This document shows positions 60,001-63,000 of a stretch of DNA of 64,000 bases, one piece after another. Position numbers: made by a program. Origin of the DNA: Flavobacterium sp. (GTDB taxonomy: Bacteria > Bacteroidota > Bacteroidia > Flavobacteriales > Flavobacteriaceae). The DNA lies in NCBI GenBank assembly GCA_014378065.1, contig JACMOK010000041.1:20008-84007 (forward strand), written 5' to 3'. Within the stretch, counting starts at the first letter, position 1. Each line of letters begins with the position of its first letter.

Positions 60001-63000
60001 CGGCTACTACCAAAAGATTTTTCATTTGTATCGATTTTAATTGTTTGGCAACAAAAATATCGAATTCTGTTTTTAAAAACATTGTAAATTGAAATTAATC
60101 CGGCAAGTTTTTCCATTTGTACTGCAAGTCCTTTGACACTGACCAACTTTAAATTACATTTGCATCGCATTGCAATTGGTGTTGGTTGCGTTAGGGATTG
60201 CAGCGGCATCCTTTTGTGTAGCCAAGCGCAGCAAAAGATACAGCGGAAAGCCCGGCCCAAAGGGAAACGCCTCTAAAATTAGATAGAAAAGACAAATGAA
60301 ACATATCAGAAATTTTTGCATCATCGCCCATATTGACCACGGAAAAAGCACCCTCGCCGATCGTTTGCTCGGCGCTACCCAAACCGTAACTGCCCGTGAA
60401 GAAAAGGCGCAGTTGCTCGATAATATGGATTTGGAGCGCGAACGCGGTATTACGATTAAAAGCCATGCGATTCAAATGGAGTATACCTATAAAGGAGAAC
60501 AATATATTCTGAATTTGATCGATACTCCAGGACATGTTGATTTTTCGTATGAGGTTTCGCGGTCGATTGCGGCTTGTGAAGGCGCACTTTTGATCGTGGA
60601 TGCAGCACAAAGCATACAGGCACAAACGATTTCAAATTTGTATTTGGCTTTAGACAATGACTTGGAAATTATTCCCGTACTCAATAAAATCGATTTGCCA
60701 AGTGCCAATCCCGAAGAAGTTAGCGATGATATCGTCGATCTGCTTGGTTGTAAACTCGAAGATATTATTCACGCCTCGGGAAAAACCGGATTTGGTGTTG
60801 AAAATATACTGGCCGCGATTATTGAAAAGATTCCGCCCCCAAAAGGAAATATCGACGAACCGCTACAGGCATTGATTTTCGACAGTTCATATAATCCATT
60901 TCGCGGAATCGAAGTGATTTTTCGGGTCAAAAATGGACAAATAAAAAAAGGCCAGAAAATTAAGTTTATGGCGACTGGTAATGAATATTTTGCTGATGAG
61001 ATTGGCACCTTAAAATTGAATCAAGTTCCCAAACAAGTCATCTCTGCCGGCGATGTGGGGTATTTGATTTCAGGCATTAAGGAAGCCAAAGAAGTAAAAG
61101 TGGGCGACACCCTGACCGATGCCAAAACCCCTACTACCAATATGATTACTGGTTTTGAAGATGTGAAGCCGATGGTTTTTGCCGGAATTTATCCGGTAGA
61201 TACCGAGGATTATGAGGAGTTGCGGAATTCTATGGAGAAATTACAACTCAACGATGCTTCGCTCGTTTTTTTGCCCGAAAGCTCCGCGGCATTGGGATTT
61301 GGTTTTCGTTGTGGATTTTTAGGCATGTTGCACATGGAAATTATTCAAGAGCGGCTGGAACGCGAGTTTAATATGACGGTCATCACTACCGTCCCCAACG
61401 TTTCTTATTTGGCATATACTAAAAAAGATCCTGAAAAAGGATTGGTAGTAAACAACCCATCCGATTTGCCTGAACCTTCTAAACTGGATCATGTAGAAGA
61501 GCCTTACATTAAAGCGACAATTATCACAAAGTCCGATTTTGTTGGGAATGTTATGAGCTTGTGTATTGAAAAACGCGGTATCATAACCAACCAAACTTAT
61601 CTGACCACCGAACGCGTGGAGTTGACTTTTGATATGCCTCTGGCCGAAATCGTATTTGATTTTTACGACCGATTGAAAACCGTTTCCAAAGGCTATGCTT
61701 CGTTTGATTATTCTCCGATTGGTTTGCGGACCTCAAATCTGGTTAAAGTAGATATTCTTTTGAACGCCACTATCGTTGATGCGTTGTCCTCGTTAATCCA
61801 TGTCGATAATGCGTACCACATTGGGAAGAAAATGTGTGAAAAATTAAAAGAACTCATTCCGAGACAACAGTTTGACATTCCGATTCAGGCAGCTATTGGC
61901 GTGAAGGTAATTTCGCGCGAAACTATCAAAGCGTTACGAAAAGATGTGACCGCCAAGTGTTATGGTGGTGATATTTCGCGAAAAAGAAAACTTTTAGAAA
62001 AACAGAAGAAAGGAAAAAAACGCATGCGCCAGGTGGGCAATGTGGAAATCCCGCAAGAGGCATTTATGGCGGTTCTTAAACTTAATGATTAGGCTTTTAA
62101 GTAAAAAAGTGTCAGGATAAAAATATAAAAACAGCCCGATGATGAGAATTATCGGGTTTACTTTTTCTGAAGCCATTCGAATAGCCGCTGGGCATCTTCC
62201 AACTTAAAAAGCTGCGTGCCTTCATTCATTGTTGCTGCAGAACCACATGCAACTCCCCACTGGATTACTTCCTTTAGACTTTTGTTTTTCGACAAGGCCC
62301 AAACCATTGCACCAACCATACTGTCACCGGCACCAACAGTGCTTTTCTTTACTACATGGGGCGCCGCCACAAATTCGTTTTGGTCTTTGGTCACTAAAAC
62401 TGCACCTTGTGAACCTAACGAAACAACAACAATTTCGGCACTTCCGTTTTCTATAAGTTTTTTGGCCGCGTTGGCTACCGCATCCAATTCTAATTTTTCT
62501 ACTCCTATCAATTTGGCGAGTTCGCCCACGTTGGGTTTAACCAAATACACGCCGATATCGAGCACTTTTCGAAGGGCTTCACCAGAAGTGTCTACTATAA
62601 CCTTGGCACCGTTGGCCTTGGCTATTGTCGCAATTTGTTGGTAGAAATCAGTCGATACGCCTTCGTTTAAACTACCGCTTAACACAAAATAATTGCCTTT
62701 TGACTGCTGCATGACCTCAACAATTTGTTGTTGTTCTTTTTTGGCAATTGGAGCACCCGAAAATCCAAACCTATACTGTGCGTTGGTGTGCCTGTCAGAG
62801 GCGATAAAATTTTCTCGAGTCCAATTTTGGGTTTGAATTGGTCTTACGGTGATTTTCGTTTCCTTTTGTAATAATGCTTCGAGCATGGCTCCACTGGCGC
62901 CACCAGAAGTGAAAACCGCTAATGATGAAGTCCCTAGCCGGCAGATAGCTTTAGAAACATTGATGCCTCCACCTCCTGCATCGTACTGCGGCGGGTCACA

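Follow-up and report, generated by a model that had tools for sequence, protein, structure and literature searches.

Flavo-1 elements of a Flavobacterium genome: dispersed DNA repeats with a strand-specific composition shadow

Three intergenic elements in the stretch of Flavobacterium sp. DNA analyzed here (64,000 nucleotides, hereafter the window), designated copies A, B, and C, raise the question of whether a folded sequence recurring between genes acts as RNA or as DNA, and whether copy B, positioned in front of lepA, has become a part of the leader of that gene. All three elements were found at the positions given in the original prediction, and the resemblance to the Flavo-1 motif (RF01705), at that time a suggestion, was borne out by cmscan against Rfam. 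Copies A and B score 67.8 and 44.4 bits, respectively, over model positions 1-76, above the gathering threshold of 42 bits, and copy C, on the minus strand, lies below it (20.9 bits, E = 0.072). Copies A and B are members of Flavo-1 and nothing different in kind, and copy C is a decayed member of the same family. Flavo-1 was catalogued in 2010 as an intergenic folded flavobacterial RNA motif (Weinberg et al., Genome Biol 11:R31; PMC2864571); it carries the Rfam label 'Gene; sRNA', with its function unassigned, and ranks among the most abundant Rfam 'sRNA' families (PMC9029176).

The elements are imperfect palindromes of 85-115 nt, nearly all of them intergenic, and the family is as numerous as had been proposed from the three copies of the window. 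At least 145 copies were found by nhmmer in this 2.95-Mb genome (96.9% complete), corresponding to about one per 20 kb, and cmsearch of the same genome, with 150 of 855 candidates scored, gave 137 matches, with ~128 of them above the cut-off. Flavo-1 is present in 35 of 36 genomes of the genus, with copy numbers ranging from 0 to at least 64 per genome, in keeping with the REP-like character attributed to it earlier. The setting is typical of Bacteroidota, with relatives carrying the S4-Flavobacteria leader and with promoters of the TTTG/TAnnTTTG type.

The Flavo-1 fold is a long irregular hairpin with stems of 3, 2, 2, 4, and 8 bp and with conserved purine-rich internal loops. RNAalifold applied to 22 copies returned the Rfam fold with 22 pairs, 15 of which exhibit double compensatory changes, and at two individual pairs three to four of the Watson-Crick combinations occur (at one of them, TA 45, CG 32, GC 20, AT 5); the pairing is maintained through compensatory change, as had been suspected. 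Departures from pairing show a wobble excess, with G.T outnumbering A.C (25 vs 11). Two subfamilies can be distinguished, type 1, with about 112-135 copies in the genome, and the Y-shaped type 2, with about 15 copies, which is characterized by a GCGTK/MACGC outer stem together with a small hairpin at the 3' side. Copy A belongs to type 1 and copies B and C to type 2, so that the exchange of a CCCG/CGGG closing stem in copy A for GGG/CCC in copies B and C, originally read as a full compensatory swap, is real but reflects the two subfamilies. TAGCC-type and GCGTKAGGG-type (Y-shaped) members were both already present in the 2010 seed alignment (PMC2864571). The shared start of copies B and C is also confirmed, comprising an exact 16-mer that occurs genome-wide only in these two, both of which have GCGTT/AACGC ends.

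The 5' edge of the element is sharp, at (C)TAGCC, whereas at the 3' side a conserved AGCTYC is followed by an A-tail; copy A accordingly begins at TAGCC and, past the hairpin, ends with AGCTCC and an A-rich tail. The flanks are T-rich on the 5' side and A-rich on the 3' side, the reverse of an intrinsic (Rho-independent) terminator in either direction, and such a role was rejected. Taken singly, copies B and C have no folding advantage over shuffled sequences (z = +0.77 and +0.16, respectively), and copy A gives z = -2.15, equal on both strands. The ViennaRNA energies of the two strands are no more than 0.75 kcal/mol apart and favor the sense strand in 81 copies and the other one in 63, so that energies do not identify the strand that folds. 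No longer element bounded by two Flavo-1 halves was found in the genome.

Table 1. Flavo-1 copies of the window and the genes and promoter elements around them.
Feature	Positions	Strand	Basis and remarks
Glyoxalase-family gene	23671-24096	-	Pfam Glyoxalase_4; divergent from rbfA, with copy A between them
Copy A, type-1 Flavo-1	24137-24228 (Rfam span 24134-24215)	+	RF01705, 67.8 bits
rbfA with its -7 box	24306-24710 (rbfA 24318-24710; box TATTTTTG 24306-24313)	+	Pfam RBFA
FtsX/MacB-like permease gene	24712-25911	+	Pfam FtsX, MacB_PCD; between copies A and C
Copy C, decayed type-2 (Y-shaped) Flavo-1	25917-26030	-	20.9 bits; MFE fold Y-shaped
Dihydrouridine synthase gene (dus)	26052-27044	-	Pfam Dus; stop codon faces copy C
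Predicted lepA promoter, Bacteroidetes type	60132-60162 (-33 TTTG 60132-60135; 19-nt spacer; -7 TACATTTG 60155-60162)	+	Read from sequence; -7 of TAnnTTTG form
Copy B, type-2 (Y-shaped) Flavo-1	60188-60272 (Rfam span 60180-60261)	+	44.4 bits
lepA (EF4)	60296-62092	+	Pfam GTP_EFTU, LepA_C

The features surrounding the three copies are collected in Table 1. Copy A is found ~90 nt upstream of the rbfA promoter and therefore outside the rbfA 5'UTR. The -7 box of this promoter is separated from the ATG by only 5 nt, and both are conserved in six species; the leader would thus be very short or absent. The site orthologous to that of copy A is filled in the same orientation in all five relatives compared, with a different central hairpin in each, and in each of the six species the element precedes the rbfA promoter. 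Copy C occupies the convergent gap between the FtsX-like gene and dus and is sense to the latter; the orthologous gap contains no Flavo-1 in either of the two relatives G006 and G013.

Most Flavo-1 elements start 0-25 nt from a stop codon, which is often the element's own TAG. In 64 of 112 type-1 copies the stop of an antisense gene follows the core at a distance of 7-111 nt, which is no more than 25 nt in 39 of them, and TAG is the stop in 18 of these 39 close cases, compared with 18% genome-wide. In tandem contexts, 65 type-1 copies are antisense and 29 sense to the genes beside them, the bias being equal in both gene orientations (16:6 and 16:6), and type-2 copies are sense to their genes in 11 of 13 cases. 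No replication-strand bias was detected in this genome by a GC-skew test (31:34), and sorting by replichore in the complete genome G008, seen among its 16 best matches, was gone when all 56 were used. The orientation of Flavo-1 tracks the direction of genes, not that of replication. Adjacent copies closer than 2.5 kb include no pair in the same direction and nine in opposite directions (5 and 20, respectively, below 5 kb), and such inverted neighbors are always 0.5-5 kb apart. The genes that lie between the members of close inverted pairs are housekeeping ones (Lrp, L20, TruA, ETF, RF, GpsA, and others), with no partner gene among them. At one locus that was examined, a separate canonical terminator follows the Flavo-1 element.

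The identity of nearest copies has a median of 0.80 and a maximum of 0.885, except for a single pair at 0.976, which includes its flanks; with nearest copies only ~80% alike, a recent burst of spread was rejected. Across five related species, orthologous sites vary in occupancy from 5/5 down to 0/2, and two further sites are filled in 1/3 and 1/4 species. Empty orthologous sites, the lack of which would have spoken against mobility, do exist (lepA filled in 6/19 species, the site of copy C in 0/2, the two further sites as above), although precise empty sites are not recognizable, the intergenic flanks of different species being too diverged. Variable presence holds for the lepA and C sites, but not for the site of copy A, which is filled in every relative compared. 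Since the 'empty' sites include a decayed relic, decay rather than excision is indicated. The copies are old, largely vertically inherited, and decaying in place.

The composition of the genes adjoining Flavo-1 is changed in a strand-specific manner. At four-fold sites, G/(G+A) on the sense strand of the element rises from a baseline of 0.445 to 0.58-0.60 next to the element, with C/(C+T) staying at ~0.46 throughout. This shadow, a composition pattern rather than a measured mutation rate, reaches ~2 kb on both sides, in genes on the same and on the opposite strand alike; it was measured on 112 type-1 copies and is weaker in the pooled type-2 copies. Tested element by element, it is present in 85 of 111 (Wilcoxon 7e-12) and absent from the other 26, and the two ratios taken at 700 gaps that lack an element are 0.429 and 0.424. 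Every neighbor-base context shifts, so that dependence on a motif was rejected, and a mirror-image footprint of the double-strand-break type was likewise rejected, since the same strand is affected on both sides. In two other species, 17 of 20 loci have the same polarity. The make-up of the shadow differs between species, being mainly A to G here, whereas in G008 G goes up and C down, and T up and A down. Filled orthologous sites show values of +0.05 to +0.22 (n = 9) and empty or relic sites -0.09 to +0.05 (n = 6), in a comparison of related, non-independent species with a crude choice of reading frame. The lepA site provides a natural experiment, in which the element-bearing lineage has 18 A>G changes against 3 G>A, compared with 10/3 and 4/10 in two sisters. 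The copies of the window themselves show little shadow (A 0.49/0.50, B 0.52/0.47, C 0.62/0.51); copies A and C are inverted and 1.8 kb apart, and thus their effects may cancel. Composition profiles of single loci are noisy and served only to check strand conventions.

The explanation that we tentatively favor, while granting it somewhat less than an even chance, is that Flavo-1 is a repeat working at the level of DNA, rather than a small-RNA gene, and that it attracts strand-specific nicking or gap repair, a step that we infer. The purine-rich sense strand of the element would fold into a hairpin with G.A and G.T mismatches, and the complement would contain the weaker C.T and C.A ones. In folded strands, G.A and G.T mismatches are stronger than C.T and C.A; the proposed asymmetry of the sense strand rests on this general difference, as the stabilities calculated with ViennaRNA are equal. 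A putative host activity recognizing the structure or its mismatches might then repeatedly nick or gap one strand at the element or close to it, after which the nicked strand would be excised and resynthesized, or the other strand left single-stranded, over 1-2 kb in both directions, the outcome being in either case a transition bias, A to G, on one strand. A wider version, possible but doubtful, would regard Flavo-1 copies as strand-specific entry sites (for nicking, gap repair, or exposure of ssDNA) rewriting synonymous A to G over ~4 kb around each of ~145 copies, and therefore placing about a fifth of the genome under an oriented mutation bias anchored by repeats. The need to limit such a bias would shape the orientation of the repeats relative to genes, as well as the inversion of close neighbors.

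An analogy is offered by strand-asymmetric mutagenesis at break or nick hotspots and by the excision tracts of mismatch repair, which, like the shadow, are kilobase-scale, distance-decaying, strand-specific, and centered on a site; both nick-directed mismatch-repair excision and break hotspots give strand-specific substitution bias. Unlike in break or nick hotspot mutagenesis, the shadow of Flavo-1 falls on the same strand on both sides, with no mirror flip, and a nick or gap in one strand thus fits better than a resected double-strand break. No repeat-centered mutation field in bacteria is described in the literature that could be searched.

We consider it rather unlikely that Flavo-1 acts at the RNA level as a cis element of neighboring mRNAs, that is, as a stabilizer, processing site, or translation barrier placed in 3'UTRs, in gaps between the genes of operons, or, for copy B, in the lepA 5'UTR, with its orientation set by selection on transcripts. 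E. coli REP elements act in these ways as structured parts of mRNA, and an orientation that follows genes and not replication, the proximity of most copies to a stop codon, compensated pairing with G.U departures exceeding A.C, the mostly sense type-2 copies, and the lepA-leader copy of six species with its compensating outer stems all point in this direction. However, among the type-1 copies in tandem contexts ~70% run antisense to their neighbors, which would leave the weaker complement in the mRNA, the element at the site of copy A precedes the rbfA promoter in each of the six species, a U-tract is lacking after the hairpin in both directions, and copy B folds no better than its shuffles; a one-strand shift extending 2 kb into genes on both strands would also be left unexplained. 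In the transcriptome of F. psychrophilum, Flavo-1 matches occur in either orientation relative to transcribed regions, with many showing no transcription (PMC9723704). The latter observation also argues against a family of independently transcribed, trans-acting small RNAs, as implied by the Rfam label, which we regard as very improbable. Conserved, covarying secondary structure and the classification itself are all that speak for such RNAs, whereas the copies, at least 145 and diverged, lack both a promoter and a terminator of their own (inspection by eye revealed no TAnnTTTG box suitably spaced from the element's TTTG), their central hairpin is wholly different even between orthologous copies, both strands fold equally well, and their number varies from none to at least 64 within one genus.

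Mobile DNA of the REPIN/RAYT or MITE type, non-autonomous and copied by a single-copy Y1 (HUH) transposase or another one encoded elsewhere, appears improbable as well. A palindromic intergenic repeat in high and, within one genus, widely varying copy number, with variable presence at orthologous sites, would be expected of it, long vertical persistence is reported to be typical of REPINs (bioRxiv 10.1101/2021.07.10.451892), and Y1_Tnp genes occur in 26 of 36 genus genomes. Nevertheless, Y1_Tnp (PF01797) has no match in this 96.9%-complete genome, high-copy genomes without Y1 exist (for example, G033, 100% complete), and no Flavo-1 was found within ~1.5 kb of 14 Y1 loci of relatives, whereas RAYTs are flanked by their REPs; a RAYT/IS200 partner was therefore rejected. 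Moreover, close inverted pairs enclose ordinary housekeeping genes, the replication-linked orientation expected of single-strand transposition is missing, near-identical copies are limited to the one pair mentioned above, the relic at an 'empty' site points to decay, and neither the sharp 5' edge nor comparisons of filled and empty sites, where the flanks are too diverged to fix the boundaries, reveal a target duplication. As an ongoing process, the mobility put forward in the original prediction is not supported. We see only a small chance that the shadow is not caused by the element, which could have inserted or survived preferentially in a fixed orientation within a pre-existing purine skew, or that it reflects selection rather than mutation. 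Consistent with these possibilities, it is composition that was measured, 26 of 111 elements lack the shadow, and its make-up varies between species; in turn, the peak is centered on the element and decays on both sides, follows the strand of the element and not that of the gene, and is absent from the 700 element-free gaps and from the empty orthologous sites of sister species, and the lepA lineage bearing the element shows an A>G excess. Selection at four-fold sites would, in addition, have to act on opposite codon meanings in the two gene orientations, which is hard to motivate.

As a DNA-level repeat, Flavo-1 shares with the REP/REPIN elements of E. coli and Pseudomonas the form of a short imperfect palindrome, present in tens to hundreds of intergenic copies, often after stop codons, long vertically inherited, and with its structure kept by compensatory change. 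It differs from them in the lack of a RAYT in this genome and in RAYT-like genes of relatives that are not flanked by it, in having neither a GTAG or CGTC tag nor tight inverted doublets, with (C)TAGCC at its 5' edge, and in its length of 85-115 nt with a hypervariable central hairpin, compared with 20-40 nt in REPs. Integron attC sites and the ends of IS200/IS605 elements resemble Flavo-1 in their conserved basal boxes, which contain extrahelical or mismatched bases, in a variable central part that also differs in length, and in a structure that is better conserved than the sequence, but Flavo-1 does not form arrays beside an integrase, and it has neither an orientation relative to replication nor linkage to a Y1 transposase. 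A literature search for REP-type repeats in Flavobacterium found nothing specific. Compared with its Rfam description as an sRNA gene, Flavo-1 is here a dispersed DNA repeat with a strand-specific composition shadow, to which the abutment to stop codons and the inverted neighbors are added; none of these three properties was found in the literature that could be searched.

For annotation, matches to the Flavo-1 model should not be taken as sRNA genes, and the behavior of a DNA repeat with an oriented, kilobase-wide footprint makes experiments directed at DNA more sensible than looking for the targets of an sRNA. Should the footprint be mutational, the rate and direction of synonymous evolution in a sizeable part of the genome would be set locally by a short repeat, and analyses of codon usage, GC skew, and selection in Flavobacteriales would be affected.

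With regard to lepA, the placement of copy B between the -7 motif and the ATG was correctly recognized at the outset, and the pair of promoter motifs is conserved upstream of lepA in 18 genus genomes. Located in the predicted lepA 5'UTR, copy B is by its position a candidate leader, in which a GCGTT/AACGC outer stem is combined with the long Flavo-1 hairpin and, at the 3' side, a small CCC/GGG hairpin. It is a weak match to the family (44.4 bits) and thermodynamically unremarkable (z = +0.77), and it would be a repeat that by coincidence occupies this leader, where it is probably transcribed as a passenger structure. Of 19 species, 6 have a type-2 copy in the sense orientation within the interval from the lepA promoter to the ATG, and the outer stem occurs among them in four different compensating forms.

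The three elements were confirmed at the positions where they had been predicted, and the resemblance to the Flavo-1 RNA motif, originally offered from recall, proved correct, with cmscan (Rfam) assigning copies A (near rbfA) and B (before lepA) to RF01705, above its gathering score of 42 bits; copy C (beside dus) falls below it. Flavo-1 was defined in 2010 by Weinberg et al. with 239 members and no function proposed (PMC2864571), and in the transcriptome of Flavobacterium psychrophilum its matches were either untranscribed or lay in sense or antisense orientation to transcribed regions, with no conclusion drawn (PMC9723704). 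The family is already known, and A, B, C and the other copies in this genome are new members. The window's genome (2.95 Mb, 172 contigs, 96.9% complete, 38.6% G+C) contains at least 137 matches, at least about 128 of them over the cut-off (150 of 855 candidates scored), and 145 copies in an iterated nhmmer census. Flavo-1 is a long-lived, high-copy repeat of intergenic regions that conserves its structure. It is oriented with respect to transcription, copies close to each other are inverted, and a strand-specific shift in flanking composition, here called the shadow, tracks the presence of the element. The literature searched, the coverage of which was incomplete, described neither the inverted neighbours nor the shadow, nor any of the other behaviours reported here.

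Coordinates of the elements and associated features, with the occupancy of orthologous sites in relatives
Feature	Location	Strand	Score	Orthologous sites filled
Flavo-1 copy A	window 24134-24215	+	67.8 bits (cmscan)	5/5
Flavo-1 copy B	window 60180-60261	+	44.4 bits (cmscan)	2/5; overall 6/19 species
Flavo-1 copy C	window 25917-26030	minus	20.9 bits, E = 0.072	0/2
Second type-1 site				4/5
Two further sites				1/3; 1/4 plus decayed relic
tRNA gene	window 23490-23563	-	69.5 bits	
rbfA -7 box (TATTTTTG) through ATG	window 24306-24320			
Near-identical pair (window's genome, G000)	C54:26039-26141; C133:276-377			
Long-core type-1 copies, examples (G000)	C142:5216; C88:5892; C85:817			
Bidirectional terminator	L001:1590-1625			

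Type 1, the main form and that of copy A, comprises 112 copies by anchor parsing and 135 by a short pattern in the window's genome. It starts with a sharp 5' edge, (C)TAGCC, followed by an irregular basal helix and a central hairpin that is hypervariable and 10-70 nt long; on its 3' side it has a conserved AGCTYC and then an A-rich tail. In the Y-shaped type 2 (about 15 copies, B and C among them), the closing stem is swapped to GGG...CCC, and an extra outer stem, GCGTK/MACGC, is present together with a small 3' hairpin. RNAalifold recovered the Rfam fold independently from 22 copies, with double compensatory changes at 15 of 22 pairs, and covariation is strong; the composition of one basal pair is TA 45, CG 32, GC 20 and AT 5, and that of another AT 51, GC 29 and TA 24. 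In the internal loops, G.A/A.G mismatches are conserved, and departures from pairing are G.T in 25 instances versus A.C in 11. About 30 type-1 copies have long central parts (cores of 80-135 nt), many of them bounded by TCCCGAT...ATCGGGA with further small hairpins inside, which agrees with palindromes being nested within the tip of the hairpin.

Flavo-1 is present in 35 of 36 genomes of the same genus, with counts of 0, 1, 3, 5 and up to at least 64, and outside the genus in only four of the 17 families sampled. Occupancy of orthologous sites was compared in five relatives, not independent of one another, whose flanking genes are 70-84% identical. At the site of copy A, the central hairpins of six orthologous copies are wholly different and the basal sub-variant switches too, although the adjacent non-coding flank is about 85% alike among three species (estimated by eye from the alignment), which suggests that the interior of the element was replaced or converted and did not simply drift. 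Nearest-neighbour identity among copies has a median of 0.80 and, one pair excepted, a maximum of 0.885, and the copies are old. In that sole near-identical pair (97.6%), the likeness runs into the flanks and one member is at the end of a contig; the pair probably reflects a duplicated segment, strain variant or assembly artefact, not a new insertion.

Copy B lies, as had been predicted, between the lepA promoter motif and the ATG. It begins about 25 nt past the -7 box of a Bacteroidetes-type promoter (TTTG, 19 nt, TAnnTTTG) that is conserved across the genus, and stops 24 nt before the ATG, a placement that makes it part of the predicted lepA 5'UTR. The orthologous leader copies, six in number, are all type 2 and in sense orientation, with outer stems of four compensating kinds (GCGTT/AACGC, GCGTG/CACGC, GCGCT/AGCGC, and GCAAA/TTTGC). 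The leader lacks a type-2 element in thirteen species, and on the lepA gene tree the leader copy must have been gained or lost at least twice; one relative (G005) has it and its two sister species do not. At four loci without Flavo-1 (L033, L036, L038, and L039), the spot of the type-2 element is occupied by a small conserved hairpin of the AATGC-GAAA-GCATT type, which could be an ancestral leader structure or target. Sub-threshold AsrC (Rfam) matches in the lepA leaders of three other relatives (L042, L044, and L046 in G015, G008, and G001; 24-30 bits vs. a cut-off of 111) are almost certainly due to chance, and the matched region marks a second kind of conserved leader within that clade. Copy A, in turn, is upstream of the rbfA promoter and is thus ruled out as a leader. 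In six species the end of the rbfA -7 box is 5 nt upstream of the ATG, a distance implying that the mRNA would be leaderless or nearly so. The tRNA gene 570 nt upstream of copy A is found in the same place in two relatives (G003 and G009).

Almost all copies in the window's genome are intergenic, as judged from crude longest-ORF gene calls. Where the neighbouring genes run in tandem, 65 copies have the Rfam strand antisense to the genes and 29 have it in sense; 28 further copies sit in divergent gaps and 16 in convergent ones. Type 2 is sense to its genes in 11 of 13 cases. The stop codon of the antisense gene lies 7-111 nt past the core in 64 of 112 type-1 copies, and within 25 nt in 39 of these; TAG accounts for 18 of the 39 near stops, vs. 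18% genome-wide, many being the element's own TAG. Replication does not account for the orientation bias: the elements split 31:34 in a leading-strand test inferred from GC skew and the antisense bias is 16:6 in both replication-co-oriented and opposed genes; a replichore pattern was also absent among 56 matches in a complete genome (G008). Neighbours less than 2.5 kb apart share an orientation in no case vs. nine in which they are opposite (5 vs. 20 at less than 5 kb), and A and C form one such close inverted pair. Genes adjoining or enclosed by the elements often belong to translation or tRNA modification (rbfA, lepA, dus, rplT, truA, a release factor, and a TrhO-like rhodanese), a remark that covers contigs C53, C25, C35, and C157 (loci L128, L129, L133, and L136) and the window. 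At one locus (L001), the element is directly followed by an intrinsic terminator of canonical bidirectional make-up (A-tract, GC hairpin, T-tract), as it is in the G013 orthologue (L102), these being both of the species with an element there; at that locus the element does not take the terminator's place.

The shadow was measured as composition, not as mutation, at four-fold degenerate sites on the sense strand of the element. G/(G+A) rises from 0.445 at 3-4 kb to 0.58-0.60 within 400 nt, and is back at baseline by about -1.8 kb and +2.5 kb, with C/(C+T) flat near 0.46. It takes the form of G3 enrichment in same-strand genes and C3 enrichment in opposite-strand genes, on either side of the element, and gene-end or codon-bias effects therefore cannot cause it. 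It is seen in all neighbour-base contexts and is positive for 85 of 111 elements (Wilcoxon 7e-12). At twenty loci of two other species the polarity is the same in 17, and there C falls and T rises too. Among orthologous alleles (three sites, non-independent relatives), the asymmetry is +0.05 to +0.22 in filled ones (n = 9) and -0.09 to +0.05 in empty or relic ones (n = 6). In lepA, the lineage with the leader copy has 18 A>G vs. 3 G>A changes, and its two sisters 10/3 and 4/10.

The shadow stays on the same strand on both sides over 1-2 kb, whereas a replication origin, a replication terminus or a resected double-strand break would flip the affected strand across the site; none of these fits. 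Gene transcription does not fit either, as the shift is indifferent to the strand of the gene. The pattern does fit recurrent nicking or gapping of one strand at the element, which we tentatively prefer, on the evidence of composition, at somewhat less than even chances. Such a nick or gap could expose the other strand as single-stranded DNA, leading to deamination-type transitions, or one strand could be resynthesised repeatedly. A plausible recognition target would be the purine-rich sense-strand hairpin with its G.A/G.T mismatches; in the complement, weaker C.T and C.A mismatches are expected from general mismatch stability. That the shadow is artefactual or non-causal is unlikely: 700 element-free intergenic gaps with the same gene-bias orientation showed no shift (0.429 and 0.424). 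The window's own copies, on the other side, have little of it (A 0.49/0.50, with C inverted 1.8 kb off; B 0.52/0.47; C 0.62/0.51).

A role at the RNA level in UTRs, to which the compensating lepA leaders would be suited, is a serious, if less probable, account and is partly compatible with a nick or gap. The two strands fold about equally well (ViennaRNA means of -23.4 vs. -22.6 kcal/mol; z = -2.15 and -2.11 for the two strands of copy A), and copies B and C folded singly are no better than shuffled sequence. That the copies, for all their covariation, are true sRNA genes is very improbable. A linked RAYT/IS200 transposase was not found: Y1_Tnp (PF01797) has no match in the window's genome, none of the 14 Y1 loci examined in relatives has Flavo-1 within about 1.5 kb, and only ordinary housekeeping genes, with no partner gene among them, lie between close inverted pairs. 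In this genome the REPIN/RAYT model thus does not pass the test that defines it. Of the 36 genomes of the genus, 26 carry Y1 genes; several complete genomes with high Flavo-1 copy number have none. Movement by another transposase is a candidate that we regard as improbable. A second, weaker Y1-like class consists of ORFs of 180-230 aa, and neither Y1 class is flanked by Flavo-1. Y1_Tnp genes of 150-170 aa are common in the genus (L051-L054 and L062-L064; G006, G008, G009, G012, G013, G014, and G046), mostly with one to a few copies per genome; G046 has seven identical ones, which are a true IS200-type element.
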